DNA from: Candidatus Helarchaeota archaeon | GTDB taxonomy: Archaea; Asgardarchaeota; Lokiarchaeia; Helarchaeales; RDOG01 | DNA: 64,000 nt | Direction: 5' to 3' | Assembly: GCA_019058315.1 (NCBI GenBank) | Contig: JAHPZH010000001.1 | Location: 1,297,432 to 1,361,431 of the forward strand | Shown: positions 1 to 51,585 of the stretch, piece by piece | Position numbering within the stretch: the first letter of the stretch is position 1 | Layout: every line of letters starts with the position of its first letter | The notes under the pieces: generated by a model | The model's database searches: none | What the model saw: the letters and a program-made list of their open reading frames with translations, nothing else | What the model was told of the DNA's origin: nothing | Program-made: the position numbers and the translations under genes

Positions 1-756
1 GATGCACAATGGGCTTTAGCAACTTCTACCTTTTTTGACGGTATATGGCATTTAATTCAATCAGATAATGAGATGAATTTCTCTAAAAGGAATGAATTTT
101 TGAATATAGCAATAAATTATCTAAAGAATGCTTTACAAATCTTTGAAAAAGCGGGTTATGAACAAAAAAGGGATGAAATTCTAAATTATTTAGAAATGAT
201 TAAAGACGAAAAAGAAATTCTTGCTTCTGCACTTAATATTATAGAAAAACCTGAAATTTCGAAAAGCACCGTTGGAATTTCAGCACCATCGTGTCCCATT
301 GAAATAAGTTCATCAGTAAATATAGAAGAAATGCAAGAAACGGATATGAAAACAGAATCTGAATTAAATTGGGCGAAAAGAATTCATCATATTTATTTTC
401 TTTTACCAAATGGTGTCTGTATTTATGACCAATCCTTTAAAAAAGAAAAAGAGATTGAACCACATTTAGTTACTGGATCTTTAGCTGGTATTTCATCTTT
501 AATTCAAGAGTTAACACAAAATAAAACCAAAATAAAAATCGTTGAACAAGAAGAAATGACAATCCTCCTCGAGCATGGAGAAAATTTGAGTGTTGCTTTA
601 ATAACTGAAGAAAATCTAATCACCTTACAAAATAAATTAACACAATTAATTAATGATGTAGAAGATTTCTATCAAGAAGAATTGGTTGCATTTTCAGGAG
701 ATATAAGCGTTTTTTCAAAAATTGGGAAATTTATTCAAAAGATATTTGAAAGCTAA
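1..756 (+). CDS. TPR/SNAP-like solenoid + C-terminal longin-like domain protein, 5' part outside window (paralogue 1 of 5)
   Basis: Frame is open from base 1 (DAQWALATSTFFDGIWHLIQSDNEM...) and aligns with the C-terminal ~250 aa of the 3345, 6979, 42847 and 48208 paralogues, including the ISAPSCPIEISSS linker and terminal domain. Confidence 0.85.
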   Translation, partial: DAQWALATSTFFDGIWHLIQSDNEMNFSKRNEFLNIAINYLKNALQIFEKAGYEQKRDEILNYLEMIKDEKEILASALNIIEKPEISKSTVGISAPSCPIEISSSVNIEEMQETDMKTESELNWAKRIHHIYFLLPNGVCIYDQSFKKEKEIEPHLVTGSLAGISSLIQELTQNKTKIKIVEQEEMTILLEHGENLSVALITEENLITLQNKLTQLINDVEDFYQEELVAFSGDISVFSKIGKFIQKIFES

Positions 757-3344: not shown

Positions 3345-6300
3345 TTGATGACACATCCAAATAAAAAAGAAATTTTAGAGCAAATTAATGATTTATTTCT
3401 TCAAACAGAAAATGAAATATTGAAATATAATTGGATCGGGGCAATAGAACTTTTAAAAAAAGTCGAAAAGATTATTTTAAATGAAAAATTAAGCGTAAAA
3501 GAAATTGAGTGTGAATTATATTATAAATTGGGGGAATTATACCAAGTAAATGCAAATTTCGAAAAAAAAGAAGATGATGTCTTAAAAAATTTTCAATTAT
3601 CTATTCTAAATTTTCAAAAAGCATACGATATATATGAAAAATTAGAAAATGAAGAAAAAATTAATGAACTTTCAGGTTCTATTAATTTCATAACATATTT
3701 ATTGGGATCTAATGAAGGAAACGAAGAATCTCTATTAAAAAATGCGAAGGACTATTTCAACAGAGCAAAACAAATTAATTTAAAAAAAAGTAATTTTCCT
3801 GATTTCTTAAAAATGGCTTTATTAGAAAGTAGGGCATTAAATTTGCTCCTTGGAGAAAAAATTATACGTATTGATGAAAAAACAGATTCCATAGCATTAG
3901 CTTCAGAATATGAAAATTTAATGGCAGATATTTGGGAAAAAATTAAAAAAGGGCAAAATTTTCCCGAAATTTGTCACTATCATTTTTTTACAAGCACTAT
4001 GGAGTTCTGTCAATGGGCATTATCTTATTTACCTGCTGAAAATTCAATAAATAAGCAACATATTATGAACAATTATGATAGAATAAAAGAATTTATAGAT
4101 ATCTTTGAAAAAAAATCAAATGCACCCAGTTTATTTGTAGCTTATACATTCATCGCCTGGTTTAATACGATTCTTGCTTCTTATTTTGTAGATAGTCAAT
4201 TTGAGCAAAAAAAACATTTAAAAATTGCAGAAAAATGGCTTAAAAAAGCAGACCAGCTATTAACTAAAAATAATACTAATAAAGCTTTGGTTTTATTTTA
4301 TTATACCCGCTTCGCCGTTTCTATACTACTAATTTCTCTAGGTTTTTTTGCAAAAGATTTTAAACATGTTATGGGAGATTTAGACGAATGTACTAATTTA
4401 TTATACGTTTATTTTCCTAGAATATTACTTGCCCATTCGGTATTTTATGCAGCATCAACATTTGCAGTTGGTGCTTTAAGTCTTTCAATTCCGGATGTTA
4501 ATACACGCATCAATCTTGCTAATATTGCTTTGGATTTACTTGAATCTGCAATTCCGAAGATTTCAATCATAACAAATCCAGATTATAAAATATATGATTT
4601 ATTTAGAAAGGGTGTCTTATGTGTAATCAATGCGTTATTAGGAGATTTAATTAAAGATAGAAAAGAAAGCTCTACTCATTTACAAATAGCATTAAATCTT
4701 TTCAATGAAATATCGAAATTTAGCAATCCAAAAATAGAAAACACATTTCTTCATTTTAATTATTTATTTGGTGTAGCTAGAACGGGAATTATATTTGCCA
4801 AAATTTCAGCAAATGAATCCGAAAAGGTTAGTTATTACTTAAAGGCAATAGATTTACTTTTAAAGAGCAAAAAGATATCAATTTCACTGTTCAGCATTGA
4901 AAATCTATTTTTAATAGGCGATCTTTATTATGAAGTAGGAGAACTAACAAATGATGATAAGATATTTAAAAATTCTTACTCATCGTATATAGAAGCAATA
5001 GAATATTGTAAAGATAAGGGTTATTCCAATTTGGTAGGTTCAGGTTATGTAAAACTTGCACAAATCGAGGATAGACTTGGAAATTATCTTTCAGCAGCAG
5101 AGAATTATAAAAAAGCAATTAATTCATTTAATAAAGCAATTTTTACCCTTACTTATTCTAGGGCGAGTAAAAAAATTGAGAAATTAAAAAATTATATAGA
5201 AGCTTGGGAACTTATAGAATCCGCAAAATCGTTTCATTTACAAGAGGATCATAACAAAGCACAGCTTAACTATGAACATGCAAGTCAAATATTAAAAGAT
5301 ATTCGTGAATATAATTTCGAGTCTCCTTTTTATTCCGCATGGGCACTTTTGGAAAAAGCAGAGTCATTAAGTAAAATAAATAAGCATCAGGAAGCTGCTG
5401 CAACTTATATTGTGAGTAAAGGAAATTTTGAAGATGCAGTTGAAACTTTTAATTCATACATAAGTAAAAGAAAATCTTCTAAAGAGACTGAGAGAATTTC
5501 AAAATTAATTCAAGTAGCAAAAATTAGAATAACTTATTGTTCAGCACGTTATCATATTGAAACTGCAAGAGTTGAAAGTAAGAATGGAAACCATTTAATC
5601 GCTTCTGAACTTTATAATAAAGCTGGTACTCTTTTTTATAAGATATGCCAATCATTTAGATTAAAAAGAGAAAAAGATGAATTAACTGCTATATATTACT
5701 TATGTAAAGCTTGGGAAAATATGGAACGGGCGGATCAAGATACAACACTTTATGCAATTGCTTCAGGATTATTTGAAAAAGCTAGCAACATTTTTCCAGA
5801 AAGTAGAATGAAAAAATTGTCCACTGGAAATTCTCTATATTGCTCAGCCTTACATTATGGTGCTTTATTTGATGAATCCACTGAATTAGAAAAGAAGATT
5901 AATTATTATAAAAGAATAAAAATGAATTTAAGGGAAGCAGCAAAAAATTATAAAGTAGGTGGCTTCGATCAAGATGCACAATGGGCCTTAGGAACGTCAA
6001 CATTCTTTGATGGTATCTGGCATTTAATACAAGCAGATAATGAGATAGATTTTACTAAAAAGAACCAATATTTAAATATCGCGACAAATTATATGAATAA
6101 TTCATTAACTATCTTTAAAGAAGCGGAATATGAGCAAAAGCAGGAGGAAATAAGGAATTATCTCGAAATGATTAGTGATGAGAAATCCATATTAACCTCC
6201 GCTTTGAATGTGATTGAAAAGCCAGAAATTTCTGCGAGTAGCATCGGTATATCAGCTCCTGCTAGTCCTGCTGAGATAAGCTCTTCAGTGAATATCGAGG

Positions 6301-6758
6301 AGATGCAAGAAACTGACCTAAAAACGGAGTCTGAATTAAATTGGAGAAAAAGAATACATTATTTATGTATATTTTTAAAAAATGGGATCTCTATTTATGA
6401 TTATACTTTTAAGTCAAAAAGTGAAATCCCACGACAATTAATTGCAAAGGAAGATCTTGAACCGCATCTAGTTGCTGGGGGGCTGTCAGGCATTTCTGCA
6501 TTAATTAAAGAATTGACACACAGTAATACTAAGATAAAGATAGTCGAACAAGAAGAAATGACCATCCTTCTCGAAGATGGAAAATATTTAACAGCTGCTT
6601 TAATAACAGAAGAAAACCTTATAACTTTGAGAAATAAGTTAATGCAATTAATTCTAGATGTGGAAGATTTCTTTCAAGAAGAATTAGAAGATTTTACTGG
6701 TGATTTAGATACTTTTAAGAAAATAGGTAAATTTGTTCAAAAAATATTTGAAATATGA
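3345..6758 (+). CDS. TPR/SNAP-like solenoid + C-terminal longin-like domain protein (paralogue 2)
   Basis: TPR-type helices (LAQIEDRLGNYLSAAENYKKA); C-terminal ~130 aa with longin pattern (IHYLCIFLKNGISIY...LVAGGLSGISALIKEL...GD..F). Confidence 0.85.
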   Translation: MMTHPNKKEILEQINDLFLQTENEILKYNWIGAIELLKKVEKIILNEKLSVKEIECELYYKLGELYQVNANFEKKEDDVLKNFQLSILNFQKAYDIYEKLENEEKINELSGSINFITYLLGSNEGNEESLLKNAKDYFNRAKQINLKKSNFPDFLKMALLESRALNLLLGEKIIRIDEKTDSIALASEYENLMADIWEKIKKGQNFPEICHYHFFTSTMEFCQWALSYLPAENSINKQHIMNNYDRIKEFIDIFEKKSNAPSLFVAYTFIAWFNTILASYFVDSQFEQKKHLKIAEKWLKKADQLLTKNNTNKALVLFYYTRFAVSILLISLGFFAKDFKHVMGDLDECTNLLYVYFPRILLAHSVFYAASTFAVGALSLSIPDVNTRINLANIALDLLESAIPKISIITNPDYKIYDLFRKGVLCVINALLGDLIKDRKESSTHLQIALNLFNEISKFSNPKIENTFLHFNYLFGVARTGIIFAKISANESEKVSYYLKAIDLLLKSKKISISLFSIENLFLIGDLYYEVGELTNDDKIFKNSYSSYIEAIEYCKDKGYSNLVGSGYVKLAQIEDRLGNYLSAAENYKKAINSFNKAIFTLTYSRASKKIEKLKNYIEAWELIESAKSFHLQEDHNKAQLNYEHASQILKDIREYNFESPFYSAWALLEKAESLSKINKHQEAAATYIVSKGNFEDAVETFNSYISKRKSSKETERISKLIQVAKIRITYCSARYHIETARVESKNGNHLIASELYNKAGTLFYKICQSFRLKREKDELTAIYYLCKAWENMERADQDTTLYAIASGLFEKASNIFPESRMKKLSTGNSLYCSALHYGALFDESTELEKKINYYKRIKMNLREAAKNYKVGGFDQDAQWALGTSTFFDGIWHLIQADNEIDFTKKNQYLNIATNYMNNSLTIFKEAEYEQKQEEIRNYLEMISDEKSILTSALNVIEKPEISASSIGISAPASPAEISSSVNIEEMQETDLKTESELNWRKRIHYLCIFLKNGISIYDYTFKSKSEIPRQLIAKEDLEPHLVAGGLSGISALIKELTHSNTKIKIVEQEEMTILLEDGKYLTAALITEENLITLRNKLMQLILDVEDFFQEELEDFTGDLDTFKKIGKFVQKIFEI

Positions 6759-6978: not shown

Positions 6979-9900
6979 GTGGGATATTCATATATGTCTG
7001 ATTTATCACATAAAGATACTCTTAATCAAATTAATGAATTAATTTATGAAGCTGAAGAGGAAGAACGTAAATATAATTGGATAAAAGTTATAGATTTATT
7101 AAAGAAAGTAAGAAGAATAAGTTCGGAAAATAATATAAAAGAATTTGAGGGAGAGGCTTATTTCCGGCTAGGGGAAGTGTATCAGATTGCTGCAGACTTT
7201 GAAAAAGAAGAAATCGAGGTCTCCAATAAATTTCAACTTGCAATAACAAATTTTCAAAAAGCATTTTATATTTTCCACGATTTACAGAACGAAGAGAAGG
7301 AAAGTGCATCAATAGCCTTTCTTAATTATTTAAAATATGTATCTGAAACTGAAAAAGTAGAGGGATCAATTTTATTAGAATCAGCAAGACTTAACTTCAT
7401 TAAATCGAAAATTTTGTTTCAAATTAAGGGCAAATTAAAAGATTCACTGAAAATGGCTATTTTTGAAAGTAGGGCTTTAAATTTACTGATAGGGGAAAAA
7501 CTTGTTCGCCTTGAAAAAACTATAAATTTAGATGAAATGGTTTTAGAACATGAAAATTTAATTATGAACATATCAGAGGAAATAAAGAAACTCCCAGTTT
7601 TTTCTGAAATTTACCTCTTTCATCTTTTTGTTGGAATGACGGATTTTGCCATTTGGTCTTCAATTTTTTTACCAATTGATAATCTACGAAAAACTCAATA
7701 TGTTAAAAGTAATCTTAACATAGTTAAAGAATTAAGTAAGATTTTCGAAAAATCTGGGGGAACATTATCAACTTTTATGGTCTATGGTTTGTGTTCGTTA
7801 TTTAATTTAATTATTTCAGCATTTATTGTTGAAGATAGGTTTGAACAAAAACGACACTTGAAATTATCCGAAAGATGGCTTAAGAAAGCTGAGAAATTAC
7901 TACCAATAATAAGAGCTGGTGGGGGATCAAATTATTCATTAGAATTTTTCTTCTTCATGCGATTCACTAATGCAATATTTCTAATATATCTTGGTTTTTT
8001 TTCAAGGAGTTTTAAACTTGCGATAGCTGATCTAACTCTTATGTTTCATTTAATGTCCTCATTCTTTCCTAGAATAACAAATGCTACTGTAGCTTTTTAT
8101 ACACTTATCGTCTTTTTGCTTGGTGCACTTGTTAGAGCTATTCCTGCTGCTCAAAGGATTGATTTTAGTAAAAAGGCATTAGACTTTATTGATTTAATGA
8201 CAATTTATATTCCACTGATTAATAATCCGAGTTATAAGACTTTCTCTGTATTTAAAAATTTTCAAACATGCATAGCTAACGCTTTATTGGGAGATTTAAT
8301 TCAAGATAGAAAGGAAAGCAAAAAATATTTAGAAACAGCTACAAAAACATTTGATAATCTTTCAAACTTAAAAATTGAACAAGATAATTTTTTCAACCGC
8401 TATTTTTTAATTTTTATGGCAAATTCGGCAAATTTAATAGCTGAAAATATGGAAGAAAAATCAGAAAAAATCAAGTACTATGATCTAGCAATTACATATT
8501 TCTCAAAGAGTGTTAAATTTGGAGGTACATTTTTAGACATCGAAAACATGTTTAGCCTTGGGACTATTCAATATAAATTAGCTAGATTAATGAATGACGA
8601 CGAAATCTTTAAAAAATCCTACGAATCATATAAAAATGCAATTGAATATTGCTCAGGAAAGGGTTATTATAATCTAGTAGGATCAGGGTTTGTAAAGCTT
8701 GCTCAAATTGAAGATAGATTGGGTAACTATCTTTCAGCTGCTGAAAATTATAAGAAAGCATTAGAATCATTTGATAGGGCTCTTATAACCTTCACTTATC
8801 TTAAATTAGGTAAAAAAATTGAAAAGTTAAAGAATTATATGAATGCATGGCAATTGATAGAAATTGCTAAATCTCATCATATAAAAGAAGATCACACAAA
8901 TGCTCAATTAAATTACGAACAAGCCAGTCATATTTTGAGTGGGATTAAGGAATACAATTTTGAAGCTTCATTCTATTCGGCTTGGGCACTTTTAGAAAAA
9001 GCTGAGTTTTTAAGCAAGCACAATAAACATCAAGAAGCTGCGGCAACCTATTTAGTCTCTAAAACTAAGTTCGACGATGCGATCGAGGCTTTAAATTTGA
9101 AATTATCTAAAAAAATAGGTATAAGAATCAAAGAGAGAGTCTCAAAATTAATTCAAGTCGCAGAAGTTCGAGAAACCTATTGTTCTGCACGATATCAAAT
9201 AGAAACTGCGAGAATTGAATCTAAGAAAGGAAATCATATACTTGCTGCTGAGTTATATAACAAAGCTAGTACTTTATTTGAAAAATTATGTCAGACCTAT
9301 AGAATTAGAAGGGAAAAGGATGAATTAGAAGCAATATTTTACTTGTGCAAAGCATGGGAGAGTATGGAGCGGGCTAGTATACAACAGGATCCATCTTTAT
9401 TCACTATTGCTTCAGACTTATTTAAACAAGCAAGCCATATCTTTCCTGATAGTAGATTAAAAAAATTATCAATAGGTAATTCACTTTATTGTACTGCATT
9501 AGAATGCTCAGCCAAATTTGACAAAACACCTGAAATAACCGAAAAAATTAGTCATTATAAAAAGATCAAAATGGTTCTTCGAGAATCATCAAAAAATTAT
9601 AAATTAGGAGGTTTCGAACAAGACGCTAAGTGGGCATTAGCTACCTCGACGTTTTTTGATGCTATTTGGCATTTAATGAAATCGGATAATGAAATCGACT
9701 TTTCAAAAAAAAGAGAATATTTGAGCATAGCATCGAATTATCTTAATGAAGCTTTAAATATTTTGAAAGATACTGAATATGAACAAAAAAAGGAAGATAT
9801 TTTAAATCATTTAAAAATGATTAAGGATGAAAAAACGATTCTAACTTCAGCGTTAAATGTTATTGAAAAGCCCGAAATTTCAGAAAGTAGTATTGGAATT

Positions 9901-10383
9901 TCGGCTCCAGCTTGTCCTATTGAGATTAGCTCTTCAGTCAGTATAGGAGAAATGCAGCAATCCGATTTAAAATCAGAGTCAGAAATGAATTGGCATAAAA
10001 AAATTCATCATATTTACATGTTTTTGCCGAAAGGAATTTGTATATATGACCAATCGTTTATGCCTACTGAACAAGAAGAATTTGAACCCCAATTGGTCGC
10101 AGGAGGATTAACAGGCATCTCGGGATTAATTCAAGAGTTAACCCAAAGTAAAACTAAGGTTAAAATAGTTGAACAAGAAGAAATGACTCTACTTCTCGAA
10201 CACGGTAAATATATGACAACTGCTTTGGTTGCAGAAGAGAATCTAATTATATTACGAAATAAATTAATTCAGTTAGTTGAGGATGTAGAGGATTTATTTC
10301 AAGAAGAATTTGAGTCGTTTTATGGAAATTTAAACGTTTTTTCAAAGGTTGGTAAATTAGTTAACAAAATATTTAAGAAATAA
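6979..10383 (+). CDS. TPR/SNAP-like solenoid + C-terminal longin-like domain protein (paralogue 3); likely start ATG 6994
   Basis: Collinear with paralogue 2 over its full length. Confidence 0.85.
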   Translation: MGYSYMSDLSHKDTLNQINELIYEAEEEERKYNWIKVIDLLKKVRRISSENNIKEFEGEAYFRLGEVYQIAADFEKEEIEVSNKFQLAITNFQKAFYIFHDLQNEEKESASIAFLNYLKYVSETEKVEGSILLESARLNFIKSKILFQIKGKLKDSLKMAIFESRALNLLIGEKLVRLEKTINLDEMVLEHENLIMNISEEIKKLPVFSEIYLFHLFVGMTDFAIWSSIFLPIDNLRKTQYVKSNLNIVKELSKIFEKSGGTLSTFMVYGLCSLFNLIISAFIVEDRFEQKRHLKLSERWLKKAEKLLPIIRAGGGSNYSLEFFFFMRFTNAIFLIYLGFFSRSFKLAIADLTLMFHLMSSFFPRITNATVAFYTLIVFLLGALVRAIPAAQRIDFSKKALDFIDLMTIYIPLINNPSYKTFSVFKNFQTCIANALLGDLIQDRKESKKYLETATKTFDNLSNLKIEQDNFFNRYFLIFMANSANLIAENMEEKSEKIKYYDLAITYFSKSVKFGGTFLDIENMFSLGTIQYKLARLMNDDEIFKKSYESYKNAIEYCSGKGYYNLVGSGFVKLAQIEDRLGNYLSAAENYKKALESFDRALITFTYLKLGKKIEKLKNYMNAWQLIEIAKSHHIKEDHTNAQLNYEQASHILSGIKEYNFEASFYSAWALLEKAEFLSKHNKHQEAAATYLVSKTKFDDAIEALNLKLSKKIGIRIKERVSKLIQVAEVRETYCSARYQIETARIESKKGNHILAAELYNKASTLFEKLCQTYRIRREKDELEAIFYLCKAWESMERASIQQDPSLFTIASDLFKQASHIFPDSRLKKLSIGNSLYCTALECSAKFDKTPEITEKISHYKKIKMVLRESSKNYKLGGFEQDAKWALATSTFFDAIWHLMKSDNEIDFSKKREYLSIASNYLNEALNILKDTEYEQKKEDILNHLKMIKDEKTILTSALNVIEKPEISESSIGISAPACPIEISSSVSIGEMQQSDLKSESEMNWHKKIHHIYMFLPKGICIYDQSFMPTEQEEFEPQLVAGGLTGISGLIQELTQSKTKVKIVEQEEMTLLLEHGKYMTTALVAEENLIILRNKLIQLVEDVEDLFQEEFESFYGNLNVFSKVGKLVNKIFKK

Positions 10384-19484: not shown

Positions 19485-20570
19485 ATGGTATTTGAATTTT
19501 TACCTAATGTAATTATTATATTAAACATAGGAATTAATTTTATCGAAGTTGCATTAGAATTACAGATATTTATACTTTTTATATCAAATGCCAGAAAAGG
19601 TCTGAGTGAGAAAGGTATTCATGGACCATTGAATATAAGATTCGGTTTATCATCTCTATTTCTTACTTTAGGTCGTATTTCTTTTATTATATGGGATTAT
19701 ATTATTCAAAATTCTTTAGCTCGAATAACTGCTTGGATTTTTACATTTCTTGGTATAATTTTTATAGGGTTTGTTTTCTATCGTGTTTTTGACAAATATT
19801 TACCAAAACTAAAATTATACTTAACATTATCTGTGTTAATAGGAATAGCAATATTTTTCATTTATTTTATTTTTATTTTCTTATTAAAAATGACTTTACT
19901 CATCTATTTTATATTTGCAGTATTAACCGGTCTGCTTGTTTTTCCTTTAATCTATGCTTTTACTAAATGTTTTATAGAAATTGGGAGTGAATTCAGAAAA
20001 TATATTGTTGCTATAATGATTGGATTGTTTGCTTCAGTTACAGGTTATTTGATCGCTTCAATGCATCCGTTTATCAGCGTTGAACATAGTATGATTGTAA
20101 AATTCATAGGGCATATGATATTTGTATCAGGAATTATTTTTTTTGCTGTAGGTTTTTGGAGTCTTCCTTCACTTAAAGAATTGGAATGGAGAGACAAAAT
20201 AAAACATTTATATATAATACTTGAGGGGGGAGTAAATATTTATGACCATTCTTTTATAATCGAAGATACTTTTCAAAGTGATCTGATGGCTGGAGGTATT
20301 TCAGGAATAACTACCTTAATGCAAGAATTAACAAAAAGTAAGGAAAGAGCAGAAGTTATAAGACAGAAAGATGTTCAAATTTTATTTAAATATGGAAAAT
20401 TTATCACTGCAGCATTAATTGCTGTTGAAGATTTGGAAATTCTTCACTTTAAATTAAAAAAGTTAGTAGATGAATTTGAAATATTATTTCAATATATTCT
20501 ACCCAAATGGAAAGGAGATTTAGAAATATTTTCACCAGTCAAAGTAATGGTTGAGAGGATTTTTACATAA
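19485..20570 (+). CDS. 7TM membrane domain + C-terminal longin-like domain
   Basis: Seven hydrophobic segments in aa ~9-225; tail (WRDKIKHLYI..GGVNIY...LMAGGISGI...WKGDLEIF) aligns with the TPR-longin tails. Confidence 0.8.
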   Translation: MVFEFLPNVIIILNIGINFIEVALELQIFILFISNARKGLSEKGIHGPLNIRFGLSSLFLTLGRISFIIWDYIIQNSLARITAWIFTFLGIIFIGFVFYRVFDKYLPKLKLYLTLSVLIGIAIFFIYFIFIFLLKMTLLIYFIFAVLTGLLVFPLIYAFTKCFIEIGSEFRKYIVAIMIGLFASVTGYLIASMHPFISVEHSMIVKFIGHMIFVSGIIFFAVGFWSLPSLKELEWRDKIKHLYIILEGGVNIYDHSFIIEDTFQSDLMAGGISGITTLMQELTKSKERAEVIRQKDVQILFKYGKFITAALIAVEDLEILHFKLKKLVDEFEILFQYILPKWKGDLEIFSPVKVMVERIFT

Positions 20571-21758: not shown

Positions 21759-22952
21759 TTAATGTTTTAGATTTAATGGAGGTAAGGGTGGTACTTTATC
21801 ATTCCAGTTCTCTGAAACTGGATAATCCCACCATTCGGGAGGAATTTTTGAATAATCACCATATTTTTTTAGACCTCTTACAAAAGCCCTAATATTTTTT
21901 GATGGTACTTTGATATGCTCCGGCTGGGCATAAAAATAGGCACCAAATCCACCCTTTTTCGTACCAAGGTTTCTCATCATATGCCACACTTCACGTTCAC
22001 ATTCTTCTGGAGTCCCTTGGGTATATATTGATTGGATATTTACACATCCCCAGAACATAATCTTTCCACGAAACGGTTTCAAATCAGTATAACCACTCAT
22101 ACGAGGACTATCAAATTCTAATGCATCTAGCTTCCAATCAATAAAGTGTGGAACTAACTGATCGATTTTTCCACAAGAGTGTAAGTGAAATTCACAACCT
22201 AGATCATGTGCAGCTTCAAATAATGGACGGTAAAGAGGTTCATAGAACTCTTTAAACATTTTTAAGCTCATAAATGGACTATTTTGAGTTCCAAGGTCGT
22301 CAGCTATTATAAAACCATGGGGTTTTCCTCCAAGTTTTACCCACATTTTCATATTTTTTATGAACCAATCTTTTAGATAGTTAAGAAGGTATTTCACTTT
22401 ATCTGGATTAAGAATATGATCGGCCATGAAATTTTCAAATCCTCTAATATAGGTTGCAACTGAAAATGGTGCATGGGGGCCTAATAAGACCATTCGATAT
22501 TTATTTTTTCCAAATTCTTTAGTCATATTTATGAATAAGGAATATCGACTTTTATCTTCAGGATCGGGTGTATAACGTTCTAAATATTCATCCAATTTAT
22601 CCCAATTAGGAAGAGATGGTCTAGCAGGGTGTCCAATAGTTTGCATAGTTCCTTGTTGCCAAATACACCCCCATTCATCTATCTCTTCGTGTGGTAGTTT
22701 CCACCACTCTTTATATTTTGGATCCTTAGCCCATTCTGGAGGATTTTCTTGCCATTTTTTTGTTAATACTGAATAAGAAAAAGAATATGGAAACAATCCT
22801 TTTTCATCTTCGGCAAAACCCGGTCTCCAATTCTTTGATGGCATGGTCACTAGAGGCCATACATCGCTATTAGATTTTCCATAATTCATTATAGGAACTT
22901 TATCTGGACCTGAAAAATTTATAGCGGCTTTAACTCTTTCTAATGAATTCAT
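21759..22952 (-). CDS. URO-D/MtaA-fold methyltransferase family protein
   Basis: MNSLERV..GPDKVP, DEWGC.W, ADDLGTQ, HSCG and FWGCVNIQ. Confidence 0.85.
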   Translation of the reverse strand: MNSLERVKAAINFSGPDKVPIMNYGKSNSDVWPLVTMPSKNWRPGFAEDEKGLFPYSFSYSVLTKKWQENPPEWAKDPKYKEWWKLPHEEIDEWGCIWQQGTMQTIGHPARPSLPNWDKLDEYLERYTPDPEDKSRYSLFINMTKEFGKNKYRMVLLGPHAPFSVATYIRGFENFMADHILNPDKVKYLLNYLKDWFIKNMKMWVKLGGKPHGFIIADDLGTQNSPFMSLKMFKEFYEPLYRPLFEAAHDLGCEFHLHSCGKIDQLVPHFIDWKLDALEFDSPRMSGYTDLKPFRGKIMFWGCVNIQSIYTQGTPEECEREVWHMMRNLGTKKGGFGAYFYAQPEHIKVPSKNIRAFVRGLKKYGDYSKIPPEWWDYPVSENWNDKVPPLPPLNLKH

Positions 22953-22985
22953 ACAAATTCCAAATGTTTATTAATTTATTTTAAT

Positions 22986-29571: not shown

Positions 29572-30024
29572 TTAAAATTTCGACATCCAATTACTTATAT
29601 TTTTATCTATTTCCTCTTCAAAAATATCTTTTAAAACTTCATGAAATCCTTGAAATTCTTGAGTATTATACGGTAATTTTTTAACTTGATGTTCGACCAA
29701 ATAGCTACCGTATTTTATGATGAATTGTTTTTGAATTTCTTCGATTTTCTTTTTTAAATATTTTTCTTTAATTTTACCCGAGCTTCTTAAAACAATAAAA
29801 ATATGGTATTCTTCTAGACTAGAAATTAATAATTTTGAACCTCCTAACTCGATTCTTTTGATTTTCTCTCCTTTGCTAATTGTTTCTAAAAAGGTCTGAA
29901 TACTGCTTAAGAACCCTGAGAATAGAGTCTCATCTACTGTTGTTTTCCCCTCTCTTCCTATAGAATGGTTGAATAAGCAGACTCCCGAGTCCTCGATTAT
30001 GTATACCTCGTCAATTTTTTCCAA
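29572..30024 (-). CDS. Stand-alone longin-like domain protein
   Basis: VYIIEDSGVCLF...DETLFSGFLSSIQTF...IKRIELG...IQKQFI..Y...F..F pattern typical of sedlin/Mon1-type longins. Confidence 0.75.
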   Translation of the reverse strand: MEKIDEVYIIEDSGVCLFNHSIGREGKTTVDETLFSGFLSSIQTFLETISKGEKIKRIELGGSKLLISSLEEYHIFIVLRSSGKIKEKYLKKKIEEIQKQFIIKYGSYLVEHQVKKLPYNTQEFQGFHEVLKDIFEEEIDKNISNWMSKF

Positions 30025-30231: not shown

Positions 30232-31029
30232 GTGGGATATAAAATGTCGAGATTAACTTATGGATTTGAATTTACATGGAATAAATTAATGAATATATCT
30301 ATCTTAAATAATCCTATGGAAGTAGTTGGACTAGTATTTGTTCTGATATTGGAAGTTATAATGGTTTTATTAGTCTATCGAGCTTTTACGAGTTATAGGG
30401 AAACTAAAATGTTTGGAACTCTTTTATGGTTTTTAGCTTTTGTTACAATATTTGTCGGTGTTATTTTCTTAATTCTTGAAAAAGTTGCTTACTCGACTTT
30501 AGGTAATATGGGACTGGGAGACCTTATGACAATACTAGCATTGACCCTATCTGGTGCAGGCATTGTTTGCTTTGATATATTTTCTTTTCATACTGCATAT
30601 CCTGACTATGAAAAGGTACTATCAGTATTAGTAGCAGCACTAGCAGCAACATATATTGGTGCATTATCTTTTGCTATAGCGACTGGAAGTCCAAATTCAG
30701 AAATTATAAATAATGAACCAGTATATAGTCTAGGGTTTGATATAATTGCATACATTACACTTATTCCTCTATTGACGATAGCACCTCTGGTTTTTTTCTA
30801 TTTTTATTGGAGAAATCGTGATAAAGAAAGAGGTCAAGCACTAAGAGGTCTATGGATCGGTATCGCGTTCTCCTTTTTTGCAGTCGGGTATATTTCTGAA
30901 GCTGCCCCTTACTTTCCTGCGGGACTAGCAGCACCTCTTCGCATTTTACATCTTATTGCAGCGACAATACTATATATCTGCTTAACTATGCCAGATTGGT
31001 TCAAAAACAGAATCGGATGGATTGATTAA
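30232..31029 (+). CDS. 7TM membrane protein without cytoplasmic domain
   Basis: Seven hydrophobic segments; YSTLG..GLG and MPDWFKNRIGW shared with 20710. Confidence 0.78.
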   Translation: MGYKMSRLTYGFEFTWNKLMNISILNNPMEVVGLVFVLILEVIMVLLVYRAFTSYRETKMFGTLLWFLAFVTIFVGVIFLILEKVAYSTLGNMGLGDLMTILALTLSGAGIVCFDIFSFHTAYPDYEKVLSVLVAALAATYIGALSFAIATGSPNSEIINNEPVYSLGFDIIAYITLIPLLTIAPLVFFYFYWRNRDKERGQALRGLWIGIAFSFFAVGYISEAAPYFPAGLAAPLRILHLIAATILYICLTMPDWFKNRIGWID

Positions 31030-35648: not shown

Positions 35649-36110
35649 ATGAAAAAAAAAGAAATTTTTGAAACAATATTGAATTTTATTCATTCTGAAA
35701 CGGGGTGGGGGGATCCTCTCAGACCACATTGCGAATTTGAAGACCTTAATATTAAAGAGACTAAAAAACAAGATGATGGAAGTCTTATTGTAACTTTTAA
35801 GTATCATTTTGATGAAGATGGGTTTTCTCAATATGATAAAACACACATAATAGAAGGCAAAGCAAAAATTGATTCTGAAGAAGAAATATTTGCATGGACA
35901 TTGGAAGAAGTTCATACAGGAGTTGACACGCATTTATACTATGGTAAGAAGAAACAAGAAGAGGATAAATTAAAGCCTTTTATCAAAAAATTAGAAAAAT
36001 TGCAAAAATTGTTGGCTGAAAAAGGTTTGAAACGAGAAGATTACGAGAGATTAAATGACGAGATTGATATAGTCATGAAACAAATTGAAAAATTAAAAGA
36101 AACCAATTAA
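35649..36110 (+). CDS. Hypothetical protein: small beta domain + C-terminal helical hairpin
   Basis: 153-aa ORF, co-oriented, 16 bp after the upstream gene. Confidence 0.65.
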   Translation: MKKKEIFETILNFIHSETGWGDPLRPHCEFEDLNIKETKKQDDGSLIVTFKYHFDEDGFSQYDKTHIIEGKAKIDSEEEIFAWTLEEVHTGVDTHLYYGKKKQEEDKLKPFIKKLEKLQKLLAEKGLKREDYERLNDEIDIVMKQIEKLKETN

Positions 36111-42846: not shown

Positions 42847-45800
42847 TTAATTTTCAAATAACCTCTGAATAAATTTTCCAATTTTTGAAAAAATTTCTAC
42901 ATCTCCATTAAAGGTCTCGAATTCTTCCTTATAAAAATCTTCTATATCCCGAACTAATTGAATTAATTTATTCCTTAAAGTTGCTAAATTTTCTTCAGTT
43001 ATCAATGCAGTAGTTATATAATCCCCATGTTCGAGGAGAATAGTCATTTCTTCTTGTTCTATTATTTTTATTTTTGTCCTATTTCTAGTCATTTCTTGTA
43101 TTAACATTGAAATTCCCGTTAAACCACCAGCAACTAGTTGAGGTTCAATTTCTTCTGTCGATTTAAAAGAATAATCATGGAGAAGGATGCCACTTTTTGG
43201 TAAAAACACATATAGAAAATGAATTCTTTTAGACCAACTTAATTCCGATTCAGTTTGGAGGTCTGTTTGAGACATTTCATCAATATTTACTGAGGAGCTT
43301 ATTTCAACAGGGCAAGTTGGGGCTGAAATGCCTACACTACTTGCCGAAACTTCAGGTTTTTCAATAATTTCTAATGCAGAGGCAAGGATAGACTTTTCAT
43401 TCCTAACCATTTCAAGATAATTTTGAATTTCTTTTTTCTTTTGCACATATCCCGCATTTTCAAATATTTTTAAAGCTGTATTTAAATAATTTGTGGCTAT
43501 TACCAAATATTGATTTTTTTTATTAAAATCTATTTCATTATCGGCTTGAATTAAATGCCACACACCGTCAAAATAGGTTGAAATCGCCATTGCCCAAGTA
43601 GCATCCGGTTTAAATCCACCTAATTGATAATTTTTTGCTGATTCCCTCAGATACATTTTGACTTTCTTATAATAATCAATTTTTTGCTCAAACAAGGCTT
43701 CAAGATCAAATAATACTCCGTTTTCTAGAGCCTTACAAAATAAAGAATTGCCTAAAGATAATTTTTTCATTTTACTTTCTGGAAAGATTTCGCTTGCCTT
43801 TTTAAAAAGATCGGATGCGATAGCAAAAAGATTCGATTTATGCTCTACTTCTGCCCGTTCCATATTTTCCCAAGCCTTACATAGATAAAAAACTGCTGTT
43901 AACTCATCTCTTTCCCGCTTAATCTTAAATTGCTGACAAATGTTTTCAAAGAGAGAGCTTGCTTTATTATAAAGCTCTGCTGAGTGTAGATGGTTTCCTT
44001 TTTTACTTTCTAGTCTTGAGTTTTCTATTTGCTGACGGGCTTCGCAATAAGATTCTCTAATCTTTGCGACTTCAATTAAATCTGAAATTCTTTTAATATC
44101 CTCTGGAGATTTTTTCTTTTTTAAGTATGCATTAAGAGTTTCTGTAGCAGTTATGAATTTATTTTTAGAAACTAAATACGTTGCTGCTGCTTCTTCGTGA
44201 TTATTTTGTTTACTTAAATTTTCTGCATTTTCCAATATAGCCCATGCACTATAAAAAGGTGCTTCAAATTTATATTCACGAACATTATTTAAAATTCGAC
44301 TTGCTTCCTCATAATTTAGTTGTGCGTTATTATGGTCCTCTGTTGCATGGTATGATTTAGCTTTTTCAATAATACTCCAAGCTTGTAAATAATTGTTTAA
44401 TTTCTCTATTTTTTTACCCAATTTGCTGTAAGTAAGAGTTAATATGGCTTGATTGAATGAATCAATTGCTTTTTGATAATTATCTGCAGCAGAATGAAAA
44501 TTACCAAGTCTATCTTCTATTTGGGCGAGATTTACAAATCCCGATCCTACTAAATTAAAAAATCCTCTATTTTTGCAGAATTCTATGGCATCATAATATG
44601 CTAAACTTGATTCTTTGAATAATTTATCATCTTCAGTTAAAATTGCTAGCTCATAATAAATTTCTCCAATAAAAAATAAATTTTCAATGTAAAACCTGAA
44701 GAAACCACCGATATGATCTTTCCCCTTTATACAGAGTTCCAATGCTTTTTGATAATAATTAATCTTTTCTGACTGACTCAAGGCATTTTGTGCCATTATA
44801 ATACCAGTTCTAGAGGTATGGTTTAGATGAAATATGTAAACTTGAGTTTTATCCAATTTTTGAAAATTATAAGTTGAAAGTTCATTAAATATTCTAGTAG
44901 CTATTTGCAAATAATTGAAACTTTCTGTTTTTTCTTTAATTAAATCAGCTAATATCGCATTCGACAAGCAGGAATAAATTGATTTCACTAGGTTATACAT
45001 TTTATAATCTGGGTTATTTGCTATAGAAATTTTTTTTAATAGTTCGATTGAATTTAATGTTCTTTTTGCGAAATCAATTCTTGAAATAGGTGGAGTAGAA
45101 GGATTAATGGCACCAAGTGAAAGAATAACCATAGCATAAACAATTGCAGCTATAATTGTTATCCGAGGGAAATGAATAAATAACGATTTATGATATGATT
45201 CCAAATTCGCCATTACATGTTTAAAATCACTGGCAAAATAACCAATATATATTAAAAGTATTGCATTAGTAAATCGCATAAAATAAAATAATGTTAAAGG
45301 TGTTGTTGCATTGATTTTTTCTAATAAAACTTCTGCTTTTTTAAGCCATTTTTGAGCTGCTTTTATATATTTTTTTTGATCGAATTGATCAATTTCAGTA
45401 AATGCACCAACAATTGTATTCAAAAAAGAATAAACTGAATAAGCACCAAATAATAGCAATATCTTTGATTCTTCAATAACCTCAATAATTTTTCCAACTA
45501 GGTCAATAAACTCAATAAAATATTGTTTTCTTATTGATTCTTCAATCGGTAAGGAAAATATAGACCATATACAGAATTCAGTAACACTAATTAAATAATA
45601 ATAATTATAAATTTCAGAAAATTCTGGTTGTTTTAATATATCTTCTGTTATTTCTGTCGTTAAATTTCTAAAATCTAAAGCCAGTTTCTTGAAATCTGTA
45701 TTTTCATCAATACGAATACTTTTTTCACCAATTATTAAATTCAAGGCTCTATGTTCAAAAACTGCCATTTTTAAGGAATCTATAATATTTCCAGAATTCT

Positions 45801-46233
45801 TATAGATTTGTTTTGCTTTTTCAAAATGTGATTGAGCAGAATTTAATAGAATATTTTCCTTTCCTATTTCTGATTCAGATTCTGATATATATTTTAAAAG
45901 ATTGATAAAACCTAAGGCTGCATTTACTTTTTCTTCTCTTTTTAATTCTTTGAAAACATCATGTGCTTTATTAAAATAAGAAATCGATAACTGAAAGCAA
46001 TTTAAGACTTTTTCTTCTTCTTTTTCGAAATCTGAAGCGATGTAATAGATTTCACCCATTCTATAATAGATTTTCCCTTCAATTTCTTTATTTTTTGTTT
46101 CTGAACTAATTTTTTCTGCTTCTTTCAAAATTTCAATAGCATTATACCAATTATATTTAAATTCCTCTTCTTCAGCTTTTTGGAAAAGTTCAGTAATTTG
46201 ATCTAATCCACTACTTTGTGAGGAATTTGACAT
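42847..46233 (-). CDS. TPR/SNAP-like solenoid + C-terminal longin-like domain protein (paralogue 4)
   Basis: Collinear with 3345 and 6979. Confidence 0.85.
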   Translation of the reverse strand: MSNSSQSSGLDQITELFQKAEEEEFKYNWYNAIEILKEAEKISSETKNKEIEGKIYYRMGEIYYIASDFEKEEEKVLNCFQLSISYFNKAHDVFKELKREEKVNAALGFINLLKYISESESEIGKENILLNSAQSHFEKAKQIYKNSGNIIDSLKMAVFEHRALNLIIGEKSIRIDENTDFKKLALDFRNLTTEITEDILKQPEFSEIYNYYYLISVTEFCIWSIFSLPIEESIRKQYFIEFIDLVGKIIEVIEESKILLLFGAYSVYSFLNTIVGAFTEIDQFDQKKYIKAAQKWLKKAEVLLEKINATTPLTLFYFMRFTNAILLIYIGYFASDFKHVMANLESYHKSLFIHFPRITIIAAIVYAMVILSLGAINPSTPPISRIDFAKRTLNSIELLKKISIANNPDYKMYNLVKSIYSCLSNAILADLIKEKTESFNYLQIATRIFNELSTYNFQKLDKTQVYIFHLNHTSRTGIIMAQNALSQSEKINYYQKALELCIKGKDHIGGFFRFYIENLFFIGEIYYELAILTEDDKLFKESSLAYYDAIEFCKNRGFFNLVGSGFVNLAQIEDRLGNFHSAADNYQKAIDSFNQAILTLTYSKLGKKIEKLNNYLQAWSIIEKAKSYHATEDHNNAQLNYEEASRILNNVREYKFEAPFYSAWAILENAENLSKQNNHEEAAATYLVSKNKFITATETLNAYLKKKKSPEDIKRISDLIEVAKIRESYCEARQQIENSRLESKKGNHLHSAELYNKASSLFENICQQFKIKRERDELTAVFYLCKAWENMERAEVEHKSNLFAIASDLFKKASEIFPESKMKKLSLGNSLFCKALENGVLFDLEALFEQKIDYYKKVKMYLRESAKNYQLGGFKPDATWAMAISTYFDGVWHLIQADNEIDFNKKNQYLVIATNYLNTALKIFENAGYVQKKKEIQNYLEMVRNEKSILASALEIIEKPEVSASSVGISAPTCPVEISSSVNIDEMSQTDLQTESELSWSKRIHFLYVFLPKSGILLHDYSFKSTEEIEPQLVAGGLTGISMLIQEMTRNRTKIKIIEQEEMTILLEHGDYITTALITEENLATLRNKLIQLVRDIEDFYKEEFETFNGDVEIFSKIGKFIQRLFEN

Positions 46234-48207: not shown

Positions 48208-51200
48208 TTATTTTTTGAAGATTTTTTGAACGAATTTGTCAATTTTAGAAAAAGGTCTAATATCTCCTTGAAAATTTTCCAATTCTTCACTAAAAAAGTC
48301 TTCTACATCATTAATTAAATCTTTTAATTTATTCCTTAAAGTTTTAAGATTTTCTTCTGCTATTAAAGCTGCACTAACATAATTCCCGTGTTCGAGGATT
48401 ATTGACAATTCTTCTTGTTCAATTATTTTTATTTTTGTTTCGCTTTTAGTTACTTCTTTTATTAGCTCAAAAAGACCTGCTAATCCTCCAGAAACAAATT
48501 GGGCTTCAGATTCTTCGATAACACCAGATTTAAAGGGATATTGGTAAATACTCTCACCTTGAGGTAAAAATAAATAAATATGATGTAATCTTTTATACCA
48601 ATTTTTCTCAGATTCTGTTTGGAAATCGGTCAATTGCATTTCTTCAATATTTGCTGACGTACTGATTTCTATGGGGCATGAAGGTGCTGAAATCCCTATT
48701 GAACTAGCTGAAATAGCTGGTTTTTCAATGATATTAGATGCTGTTGTAAGTATCATTTTTTCTTTTTTGATCATATCTAAATATTGAGAAATTTCTTCAC
48801 TTCTTCTCTTGGATCCGACTTCACTGAAGAGATTTTGTGCTGTAGTAAGGTAATTTGTTGCAACATTTAAATCCCTATTCTTTTTAGTAAAATCGAGTTC
48901 ATTGTCAGCTTGAATTAGATGCCATAATCCATCAAAATAAGTCCCAGTTGCTAAAGCCCATTTTGCATCTTCCTTGAAACCCCCTAGTTGATAATTTTTC
49001 GATGCTTCCCTTAAAAATGTTTTAATCTTTTTGTAGAAATTAGTTTTTTCATTTAAATCAGTAGATTTATCAAATAGAATTCTATTTTCAAGCGCTGAAC
49101 AGAAAATAGAATTTCCTAAGGATAATTTCTTCATTTTAACAGTTGGAAAATTTTCACTAGCTTTATTAAATAAATAAGAAGCTATAGCAAATTGTTTTGA
49201 ATCCTGTTTTAATTCCGCTTTTTCCATGTTTTCCCAAGCCTTACATAAATAAAGAGTTGCGGTTAATTCATCTTTTTCCCGTTTTATCTTAAATTTATGA
49301 CAAATAGTTTCAAATAATGAACTGGCTTTATTGTAAAGCTCAGCAGCTAGTAAATGATTTCCATTTTTACTTTCTATTCTTGCAGTTTCAATATGATGTC
49401 GAGCGGTGCAATAATTTTTTCTGGTTTCCCCAACTTGAATTAATTTTTGAATTCTTTCAATATTTTCCGGGGATTTTTTCTTTAGAAATGAATCTAAATT
49501 TTGAATTGCATTTTCAAAACTTTTTTTTGCCTCTAGATATGTTTCTGCAGCCTCCTGATACATACCTCTTTTACTAATATCTTCTGCTTTCTCTAAAATG
49601 CTCCACGCAGAATAAAAGGGTGATTCATATTTATATTCACGAATTTTATTCAATATCTGGCTTGCTTTTACATAATTTTCTTGTGCTTTTATATGATTTT
49701 CATTCGTATGTTCATTTTTTGCGATTTCGATAATTTCCCATGCATTGACATAACTTTTTAATTTATTAATAGTTTTTCCGGCTTTAATATACGTTAGAGT
49801 CATTAAAGCTCTATCAAATGCGTCACTTGCTTTTTTATAATTATCTGCAGCGGCAGTGTAATTACATAATCGGTCTTCAATTTGTGCAAGATAAATATAT
49901 CCCGATCCGACTAAATTTGAATATCCTTGATCTTTACAAAATGTTATTGCATCATTATATGCCACGATTCCCTTATTAAACATATCACCATTTGTTAATA
50001 TTCCCAATTCATAATATGTTTCTCCAATCATAAACAAATTTTCAATGTAATACCATGTTTCCTCATAAATATGCTTTTTTAAAAAGAATTCAAGCGATTT
50101 TTTTAGATAATTTACCTTTTCTGATTTATCTTTTGAATGTTTTGCTAATAATAATCCAATTCTTGGATAACAATACCCAAAGACATGGCTATAATTATAA
50201 GATCGTTCCTTTGTAACTCCAATATAATTCGAAATCTCATTAAAATATTCAATAGCACTTTGTAAATGCTTGTTTCTTTTTATATCCTCAAATATATCTC
50301 CCAATCCTATATGACCCACACATAAAAGAGCTTTATAAAATTGATTATATAAAATATAATTTGGATCAATCATTATTGGAATTCTAAAATTTGTTAACAT
50401 ATCCAATATCCTATTAGCAAACTCCACTCGTTGAATACTTAACGTTGCACGACTCATAGCCCCGATCATGAAGGTAAATGCACTATAAAAAACCCCATGT
50501 GCTGCCATAATTTTAGGAAAATGTAATTTACTAGCATTAATACTTTTTTCTAAGTCTTGTAGAATTAAATTAACATCTTTTGCGAAAAAACCAATAGAAA
50601 TTAAGAACATTGCAGTGGAGAATCGCGAGTAATAAAAAAATATTAAACCTGAAACGGGGATGCTTTTTGATAAGAATTCATCTCCTTTCTTTGCGGCCTT
50701 TTGAGCTCTATTTAAATATTTTTTTTGTTCAAATTGACTCAGTGCAAAATACGCACTAAAAATAAAATTAAAAAATAAATTAGCAGCATATGAAAAAAAT
50801 AACCAAGGAAGTTTATTCGATTTTTTAAATTTACTAATTAATTCATCAGATAATTCTAGCCAATTGAGGACATGTTGTTTTATATTTTTTTTATCAATTG
50901 GTGAATAGACAATAAGCCATGCAGTATATTCCTCAATACTAATTAAAAAATGATAGAAGCAAATTTCAGGTACATTTTGTTCCTTTCTTAATTCATCCCA
51001 TATGTTTTCTAGAGTAATTTTAAATTCTAAAGATAAATCATCAAAATTTGCATTTTTATCATTTCTAATACATTTTTCAGCAAAAATCAATTCTTGTGTT
51101 CTGTTTTCTAGAACTGCCATTTTTAATGATTCTATTCCATTTCCTTTTTTGGTATTTAGGATTTTTGCATCATGAAAATTTTTTTTAGCAGATTCAAGTA

Positions 51201-51585
51201 ATAATTTTTCTTTTCCTTTCTCGGCTTCTGATATATATTTTAAAATATCAATAAAACCTAAAGTTCCTTTAATTTTTTCTTCTATTTGCAACTGAGTAAA
51301 TATTTTATATGCTTTCTGATAATATTCTAAAGCAAATTTAAAATCATTTAATACATTTTCTTCTGTTTTTTCGAAATCTGCGGCTATTTGATAGATCTCA
51401 CCAAGTTTATAATATGCTTCACCTATTTTCTCTTTAAAATTTTCAGGTTGAGTTTGATGAATTTTTTCTATATTTTTTAATATCTCTATAGCCTTTCCCC
51501 AATTATGATTGTGTTCTTCTATCTCTACTTTTTTTAAAAAGTCATTAATTACTTCTAAGCTTTCCTTTTTCGAGATATCTGACAT
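48208..51585 (-). CDS. TPR/SNAP-like solenoid + C-terminal longin-like domain protein (paralogue 5)
   Basis: Collinear with the other paralogues. Confidence 0.85.
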   Translation of the reverse strand: MSDISKKESLEVINDFLKKVEIEEHNHNWGKAIEILKNIEKIHQTQPENFKEKIGEAYYKLGEIYQIAADFEKTEENVLNDFKFALEYYQKAYKIFTQLQIEEKIKGTLGFIDILKYISEAEKGKEKLLLESAKKNFHDAKILNTKKGNGIESLKMAVLENRTQELIFAEKCIRNDKNANFDDLSLEFKITLENIWDELRKEQNVPEICFYHFLISIEEYTAWLIVYSPIDKKNIKQHVLNWLELSDELISKFKKSNKLPWLFFSYAANLFFNFIFSAYFALSQFEQKKYLNRAQKAAKKGDEFLSKSIPVSGLIFFYYSRFSTAMFLISIGFFAKDVNLILQDLEKSINASKLHFPKIMAAHGVFYSAFTFMIGAMSRATLSIQRVEFANRILDMLTNFRIPIMIDPNYILYNQFYKALLCVGHIGLGDIFEDIKRNKHLQSAIEYFNEISNYIGVTKERSYNYSHVFGYCYPRIGLLLAKHSKDKSEKVNYLKKSLEFFLKKHIYEETWYYIENLFMIGETYYELGILTNGDMFNKGIVAYNDAITFCKDQGYSNLVGSGYIYLAQIEDRLCNYTAAADNYKKASDAFDRALMTLTYIKAGKTINKLKSYVNAWEIIEIAKNEHTNENHIKAQENYVKASQILNKIREYKYESPFYSAWSILEKAEDISKRGMYQEAAETYLEAKKSFENAIQNLDSFLKKKSPENIERIQKLIQVGETRKNYCTARHHIETARIESKNGNHLLAAELYNKASSLFETICHKFKIKREKDELTATLYLCKAWENMEKAELKQDSKQFAIASYLFNKASENFPTVKMKKLSLGNSIFCSALENRILFDKSTDLNEKTNFYKKIKTFLREASKNYQLGGFKEDAKWALATGTYFDGLWHLIQADNELDFTKKNRDLNVATNYLTTAQNLFSEVGSKRRSEEISQYLDMIKKEKMILTTASNIIEKPAISASSIGISAPSCPIEISTSANIEEMQLTDFQTESEKNWYKRLHHIYLFLPQGESIYQYPFKSGVIEESEAQFVSGGLAGLFELIKEVTKSETKIKIIEQEELSIILEHGNYVSAALIAEENLKTLRNKLKDLINDVEDFFSEELENFQGDIRPFSKIDKFVQKIFKK

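Follow-up and report, generated by a model that had tools for sequence, protein, structure and literature searches.

Asgard archaea encode a widespread and unannotated class of membrane proteins in which a bundle of seven transmembrane helices (7TM) is directly followed by a C-terminal longin domain. Four of these 7TM-longin genes lie in the 64,000-nucleotide stretch of DNA analysed here (the window), whose source genome is Asgard archaeal and 5.8 Mb in size and whose best matches are MAGs labelled Hel-, Hod- and Promethearchaeota.

Four 7TM-longin genes of two subfamilies

An earlier note on this DNA had reported seven TM helices with a directly attached longin-like domain at 19485, 36292, 37466 and 61016, and ORFs were found at all four places, standing among metabolic genes. 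P0001 (19485..20570, + strand, 361 aa) comprises a 7TM domain (~19509-20162) and a longin domain (~20199-20564), as delimited from the ORF, the AF2 model, fold matches and topology. P0002 (61016..62080, + strand, 354 aa) has a 7TM domain, which belongs to an 8-member paralogue cluster, and then a longin domain (~61685-62077). P0003 (36292..37374, + strand) is the upstream member of a tandem pair and has 360 aa when read from ATT 36292, its first canonical ATG being at 36352; its 7TM domain is followed by a longin domain at ~36976-37344. P0004 (37466..38632, + strand) has 388 aa from TTG 37466 or 370 aa from GTG 37520, with the family's Met position at ATT 37550, a 7TM domain at ~37568-38200 and a longin domain at ~38234-38602. 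AF2 models of P0001 and P0004 bore out the reported architecture, which was extended by homology to P0003, because it is 67% identical to the modelled P0004, and to P0002, because its membrane-domain family aligns in register with that of P0001 over ~205 columns.

The division into two subfamilies (P0001/P0002 and P0003/P0004) also held, the tails of the two being homologous (HHalign 99.5%, E 1.5e-22; reversed control 0.2%) and the P0004-type membrane domain reaching 2% or less in HHalign against the P0001 and P0002 types. P0001 and P0002 share 33% identity overall, falling to 20.8% for the TM part and rising to 39.1% for the tail, in line with the claim that their TM parts are more divergent than their tails.

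The codon at 36292, assumed by the earlier note to be the start of P0003, is ATT. It is probably the true, non-canonical start, because a Met aligns exactly at this position in 90% of 89 homologues and because, in the orthologous contig of a related MAG, the in-frame codon directly before the ATT is TAA. A start at ATG 36352 would halve TM1. ATT occupies the family's start-Met position in both window paralogues (36292 and 37550) and in the related MAG, with GGAGGA 8-11 nt upstream in all three genes, and AUU is probably the start codon at 37550 and in the related MAG as well. Gene callers start 20 codons downstream of the ATT and truncate helix 1.

The C-terminal longin domain

Profile comparisons and structure models place the tails in the longin domain superfamily (SNARE-like clan). 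In the AF2 models of P0001 and P0004, the tail has the secondary-structure order bb-a-bbb-aa, as in longins. By exhaustive structural comparison over the range from residue 238 to about 361-368, the tails matched solved longins (TRAPP Bet5/Trs23, Sec22, VAMP7, AP sigma and Fuzzy) at Z ~12 and rmsd 2.6-3.1 Å, the longin matches (Z 12.0-12.7, rmsd 2.6-3.2 Å over 112-126 residues) covering both C-terminal helices. P0001 238-361 matched TRAPP Trs23/Bet5 (3cue_A; Z 12.7, rmsd 2.8 Å, 122 aa) and also synbindin (Z 12.3), Fuzzy (Z 12.1), AP2 sigma (Z 12.0) and the VAMP7 longin (Z 11.7), while the P0004 tail matched Sec22 (3egd_C; Z 12.7, rmsd 3.1 Å, 122 aa), VAMP7 (4afi_B; Z 12.2, rmsd 2.6 Å, 117 aa), Bet5 (Z 12.3) and Mon1/Ccz1 (Z 11.2-11.6).

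Pfam and NCBIfam searches with the four proteins gave nothing above cut-off, a PDB sequence search with the family profiles gave only Trs23 (E 0.012), and Foldseek of the whole P0001 model against the PDB gave nothing at E 0.001 or better, its weak list holding longin/roadblock chains together with one GPCR and one rhodopsin. Fuz_longin_1 was weakly matched by 5 of the 89 P0004-family members (best E 4.9e-4). HMMs built solely from the 7TM tails directly matched three paralogues (E 1e-7 to 1e-16): one that passes Pfam Fuz_longin_1 at 40.8 bits vs a cut-off of 26.1 (tail-HMM E 7.8e-10 and 1.4e-14), the Sybindin-like stand-alone gene at 29572-30024 of the window (E 8e-15 and 7e-16) and a longin-Ras fusion. 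The tail profile aligned with the soluble longin profile at 98.9-99.6% in HHalign.

A roadblock/LC7 identity was rejected: Robl_LC7 (PF03259) had no match on the four proteins at E up to 1, strand 1 of the tail is preceded by just a 9-residue linker helix and no long roadblock-type N-terminal helix, and roadblock structures (MglB and MK-D1 roadblock3) align to the tail core alone (235-343). The longins of TRAPP Bet5/Trs23 (Sybindin family), Mon1-Ccz1 and Fuzzy-Inturned share the fold and the strand/helix order of the tails (Z 11.2-12.7), but they are soluble and form heterodimers within larger complexes, whereas the tails are C-terminal on a polytopic membrane protein. In the prokaryotic MglB-MglA pair, a roadblock GAP with a related alpha/beta fold (Z ~11.6 over the core) forms a dimer on a Ras-like small GTPase; MglB is soluble, however, and the roadblock matches leave out the two C-terminal helices of the tails.

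Predicted structure and topology

The AF2 model of P0001, built on 16 relatives (pLDDT 74.7), places TM helices at residues 9-39, 46-74, 77-105, 107-133, 138-166, 168-192 and 199-226, followed by the tail (b239-246, b251-256, a265-282, b291-294, b297-303, b307-313, a318-341 and a346-360). That of P0004, built on 89 relatives and from residue 19, has the same 7TM plus longin plan at pLDDT 94.6 and pTM 0.90, with TM loops of 2-9 residues except for a 21-residue beta-hairpin in the second outer loop. Its single confident arrangement of both domains suggests that the two are coupled.

With the model helix limits laid on the family alignments, the positive-inside rule predicts that the N-terminus is outside and the longin domain in the cytoplasm, since K+R in the cytoplasmic-side loops was 8.5 vs 1.4 on the opposite side in the P0004 family (89/89 sequences) and 8.2 vs 1.7 in the P0001 family (16/16 sequences). 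This agrees with the N-out, C-in orientation expected at the outset; the reverse, with the longin outside, had been named as contrary to the proposal and was predicted for neither family.

Conservation, scored by region in the 89-sequence P0004 family, was 0.74 in the linker between helix 7 and the longin domain, which carries a conserved Pro-x5-Leu-Pro-Phe, and then 0.49 in the longin domain, 0.42 in the inner TM halves, 0.35 in the outer TM halves and 0.34 in the outer hairpin loop. The conserved residues are D96, E101, D104, K107, K177, P173 and the linker, with all conserved charged residues of this family on cytoplasmic loops. Variation outside combined with conservation inside and in the coupling region is what one would expect of a receptor whose output is fixed.

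Relations of the membrane domains

The membrane domains of the P0001 orthologues, the P0002 cluster and a 10-member cluster form one related group (HHalign 98% and 80%), the P0001 and P0002 families aligning at 80% directly and at 98% through a third family, with ~205 columns in register. Searched by itself with phmmer, the P0001 membrane domain had no paralogue, its link to the other clusters being seen by profile-profile comparison. The P0004 cluster and a 5-member cluster showed no link to this group.

Against 14 Asgard HisKA_7TM domains, the P0004-type profile (89 sequences) aligned at 87.7% in HHalign (E 3.4e-6, 210 columns in register), compared with 0.7% for the reversed control and at most 1.3% for other 7TM clusters. 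The membrane domain of P0003 and P0004 is probably related, distantly, to the HisKA_7TM sensor domain. The nearest named language-model clusters of the P0004 type carry HisKA_7TM (scores 0.87-0.88; leads only), and Pfam HisKA_7TM (PF16927) matched 1 of the 89 members at E 4.9e-4 and none above cut-off, along with a single sub-threshold 7TMR-DISM match. HHalign gave no link between the P0001/P0002 membrane domains and HisKA_7TM. Judged by these alignments, the P0003/P0004 subfamily looks like a prokaryotic 7TM sensor with the kinase replaced by a longin domain; no HisKA or HATPase match was found in the proteins, whose C-terminal domain is the longin. In HisKA_7TM (PF16927) and 7TMR-DISM, sensor modules of histidine kinases and cyclases, an N-terminal seven-helix module is likewise followed by a cytoplasmic output domain, but HisKA_7TM proteins have a kinase as output and the 7TM-longin proteins a longin.

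In structure searches, the membrane domain matched microbial rhodopsins, several GPCR classes and designed GPCR-like bundles at Z 12-14.6 over ~200-230 residues, and no enzyme or transporter fold, either of which the earlier note had named as telling against it, was matched specifically. GPCR- and rhodopsin-type bundles, two of the folds that the proposed check had named beside HisKA_7TM, are thus matched, but because unrelated helical bundles reach such Z values with the same structural comparison, we limit the likeness of the modelled domain to a GPCR/rhodopsin-like arrangement and no more. As for membership of the eukaryotic GPCRs, there was no 7tm family match in Pfam and no conserved GPCR motif. 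Like eukaryotic GPCRs (class C, adhesion and taste) and microbial rhodopsins, the 7TM-longin proteins have seven helices, an N-terminus that is predicted to be outside and a similar helix arrangement, to which the P0004 model adds the hairpin of its second outer loop; unlike them, they have no retinal Lys, no GPCR motif and no heterotrimeric G protein, and the two sides have no sequence relation. Of the 'GPCR-analogous' claim, shape and predicted topology stand, whereas the motif is lacking, the fold scores stay within the range of unrelated bundles and the best sequence lead, which concerns one subfamily, is HisKA_7TM and not a GPCR.

Several specific identities were rejected. Microbial rhodopsins require a retinal-binding Lys in helix 7, and none is conserved here: the highest Lys frequency in helix 7 is 0.31 (P0001 family), and the sole frequent Lys of the P0004 family (0.63) lies beyond the helix end. 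A PAQR/alkaline ceramidase 7TM hydrolase was dismissed on the missing His/Asp metal site, the opposite predicted topology and an rmsd of 5.8 Å for the ACER3 match, and a transporter on its missing defining residues. The membrane domain has no His above 0.45 frequency and no conserved charge within the membrane, and the inside of the bundle showed no conserved polar pocket.

Size and spread of the longin family

Whichever of the two tails a profile was started from, it ended with the same 145-147 ORFs of the genome, or ~2.8% of its ORFs of 100 aa or more. About 45 of these are 7TM proteins, in at least five membrane-domain clusters. Other front ends include one 11-TM MFS-like protein, 3-4 TM forms, wHTH fusions and single-pass proteins of 700-2600 aa with large ectodomains; there are also eleven longin-tailed proteins of 1112-1137 aa, ~25 stand-alone longin domains and seven ORFs that combine a longin with a Ras-like GTPase.

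Beyond this genome, a metagenome library clustered at 50% has 568 representatives of the P0004 type. The type has matches in 143/201 Asgard-phylum genomes at E 1e-10 or better, and the P0001/P0002 type has matches in 94/121 genomes at E 1e-15 or better, some of these matches being tail-only. Many families of the phylum have full-length matches, and the suggested census across Asgard genomes came out positive for both subfamilies. In the ESM Atlas, three Promethearchaeota clusters share the overall fold, and all are labelled 'hypothetical'. Proteins of ~720-790 aa ending in the same longin occur even in the smallest genomes searched (1.3-1.4 Mb), and this class may be the most conserved architecture of the longin tail. 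Three metagenomic relatives of P0004 (P0095, P0157 and P0076) carry a CxxC...CxxC zinc-ribbon-like motif after the longin, and two of them add a domain of ~150 aa; the extension of the longer P0004-type relatives (459-608 aa) had no Pfam match and no homologue in the genome.

The window itself holds ten longin-family members, six besides the four 7TM-longin genes; the occurrence of the tail on these six ORFs, as on many non-7TM proteins elsewhere in the genome, was absent from the earlier note. One is a stand-alone longin of 150 aa (29572..30024, - strand), matched by the tail-only HMMs and by Pfam Sybindin at E 4.1e-5 (24.1 bits vs a cut-off of 25). The other five belong to the genome's eleven proteins of 1112-1137 aa, with a TPR/MIT-like middle and a C-terminal longin: 3345..6758 (+ strand, 1137 aa), 6979..10383 (+ strand, 1134 aa), 42847..46233 (- strand, 1128 aa), 48208..51585 (- strand, 1125 aa) and 1..756 (+ strand), which is the 3' end of a 1122-aa ORF.

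Two further window genes encode tail-less 7TM proteins of a family of 28 paralogues (~258 aa) for which Pfam gave no match. One (30232..31029, + strand, 265 aa) is the divergent partner of the stand-alone longin gene at 29572..30024, and the other (P0005, 20710..21486, - strand, 258 aa) is convergent with P0001 at a distance of 140 bp. In the genome, 5 of the 28 tail-less genes have a longin-family gene no more than 500 bp away, where 1.5 would be expected, and three are divergent to stand-alone longin genes, the window pair being one of these. Such a pair of tail-less 7TM and stand-alone longin may be a split form of the fusion.

Near P0001 are two URO-D family genes (21759-24182, - strand), which also flank the P0001 orthologue in a Helarchaeota MAG; this is gene order conserved between close relatives, with no evident functional link. 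Just upstream of P0003 is a 153-aa ORF (35649..36110, + strand), and a related MAG has the same order (68% identity). The ORF product ends in a helix of ~48 aa with an ..EDY.. motif, which is similar to the C-terminal tail of a GTPase (G000:C5:986646-987305) encoded directly upstream of a paralogous 7TM-longin gene, and also to the C-termini of about ten coiled-coil proteins.

A possible association with small GTPases

Longin domains elsewhere are dimeric platforms for small GTPases, and in SNAREs and the small subunits of AP and COPI they also serve in roles that involve no GTPase. The genome encodes ~103-115 small GTPases, and 6 of the 45 7TM-longin genes lie within 500 bp of one, against 1.8 expected and a maximum of 6 in 300 random draws. 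At three of the six, which represent three different membrane-domain clusters, the GTPase gene is directly upstream on the same strand. No GTPase is encoded near the four window genes, the nearest being 25-66 kb away, and homologues in other contigs have housekeeping neighbours and no conserved operon. Among 17 loci in ten other genomes, a GTPase lies within 1.5 kb at three, perhaps one orthologous locus, while about ten have a tandem pair of unlike 7TM-longin genes (~385 aa and ~365 aa). By analogy, such pairs would fit the heterodimers usual for longins. Elsewhere in the source genome, an island (G000:C5:1284350-1298550) holds seven tandem 7TM-longin genes, two opposite-strand Ras-like GTPase genes and five tandem tail-less 7TM genes.

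For two tails together with the GTPase whose gene lies 95 bp upstream of a P0002 paralogue, a complex was weakly predicted, with a score of 0.35 compared with 0.00 for the best of three controls; runs agreed in at least 92% of contacts and the partner pLDDT was at least 80. The mark for this score is reached by 58/80 solved complexes and 2/110 mismatched pairs, scores of 0.60 or less taking in only seven of the 80 solved complexes and both passing mismatches, and these calibration counts hold only roughly for a job with custom alignments and three chains. The pass may reflect memory of MglA-MglB or TRAPP-Ypt1, which are solved roadblock/longin-GTPase complexes. Of the 'built-in GTPase-regulator fold' proposed earlier, the longin fold itself stands, and a possible action on a GTPase draws on that fold, the paralogous fusions, the modest excess of GTPase neighbours and the weak complex prediction.

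A candidate route from membrane sensor to GTPase

These Asgard-specific proteins may be read as an N-out seven-helix bundle of the prokaryotic 7TM-sensor type, rigidly joined through the Pro-x5-Leu-Pro-Phe linker to a cytoplasmic longin. Because the same tail stands behind many unrelated front ends, we regard the longin as a common output: it would be a module shared by many different sensor or anchor modules, at the end of roughly a hundred proteins of the genome. As a homo- or heterodimeric platform, it would recruit or regulate a Ras-superfamily small GTPase at the membrane, and the state of the 7TM bundle would be passed on to the GTPase switch. We set this coupling slightly below an even chance, because the window genes lie far from GTPases and no conserved operon surrounds the homologues; the parts that we infer are a sensing role, dimerisation, a GTPase partner and the kind of effect, be it exchange, hydrolysis or anchoring. 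A wider scheme, which we consider doubtful, would be an Asgard receptor-to-small-GTPase system in which several 7TM families, MFS-like proteins and single-pass sensors signal through the fused longin as common transmitter, pairing and switching Ras/Rab/Arf-like GTPases; in two-component systems, the role proposed here for the longin is that of the kinase domain.

The 7TM domain could instead be a passive landmark that merely anchors a longin platform at the membrane and senses nothing, much as LAMTOR1 anchors Ragulator and SR-beta holds the SRX domain of SR-alpha. That the same tail follows very different membrane domains, including MFS-like and 3-4 TM forms, and that the bundle lacks a conserved polar pocket would suit such an anchor, but one helix would then suffice, yet seven-helix bundles of ~220 residues are kept across the phylum, conservation is highest in their linker and cytoplasmic loops and the P0004 model, in one confident two-domain arrangement, suggests coupling. 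On balance we think a mere anchor unlikely.

Two other readings dispense with the GTPase or turn the direction of signalling around. The tails might pair with longin/roadblock proteins or bind helical peptides, and so build membrane complexes or mark cargo. Sec22, VAMP7 and AP sigma match the tails as well as the GTPase platforms do, 7TM-longin genes often stand in tandem pairs or arrays, and tail-less 7TM and stand-alone longin genes form divergent pairs, all in keeping with assembly or sorting; however, no SNARE or coat partner is evident and this genome has direct fusions of the same longin family to Ras-like GTPases, which makes this reading quite unlikely in our estimate. Still harder to credit, and in our judgement very unlikely, is a longin that acts as an input domain, binding a metabolite or protein and gating transport or channel activity of the 7TM bundle. 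The membrane domain is as similar to rhodopsin-type pumps and channels as to receptors and there is an MFS-like relative with the same tail, but TM7 has no conserved Lys, no His or charge is conserved within the membrane, and the tail also ends many soluble proteins, which offer nothing to gate.

Around a hundred small GTPases are encoded in Asgard genomes, together with many longin and roadblock proteins, and to our knowledge these genomes are without prenylation machinery. How Asgard small GTPases meet membranes and what controls them have been named as open questions (PMC4917890). Asgard expansions of longin and roadblock proteins, longin-GTPase fusions and an NPRL2-like longin fused to two-component signalling domains have been described (Tran et al. 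2024, PMC10933270; Liu et al., preprint, 10.1101/2020.10.19.343400), and the present proteins belong to the same superfamily and the same lineage-specific expansion as the soluble longin/roadblock proteins and GTPase fusions of those studies. A transmembrane or 7TM fusion is not mentioned in the texts of the two papers (supplementary tables aside; the asCOG table might list it), and we found no published description of the 7TM-longin architecture. '7TM proteins' and 'a class C GPCR' appear among the Asgard-eukaryote structural clusters of a 2026 preprint (10.64898/2026.10.28.762692), which leaves the longin unmentioned. New here are the census within the genome, the several unrelated membrane domains, the link to HisKA_7TM, the conservation gradient and the start-codon observation.

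A large family, found phylum-wide, that carries a GTPase-platform fold on the cytoplasmic face of sensor-shaped proteins is a testable candidate for the missing link between GTPases and membranes. It would represent a prokaryotic 7TM sensor module with its usual kinase output exchanged for a eukaryote-type domain. Even if the GTPase link fails, this family ranks among the largest in Asgard genomes of those membrane protein families that lack annotation. If the receptor-longin-GTPase reading is true, it would answer how Asgard GTPases that lack a lipid anchor reach membranes, and the family would stand as a forerunner, or an analogue, of receptor-GEF-GTPase signalling in prokaryotes.
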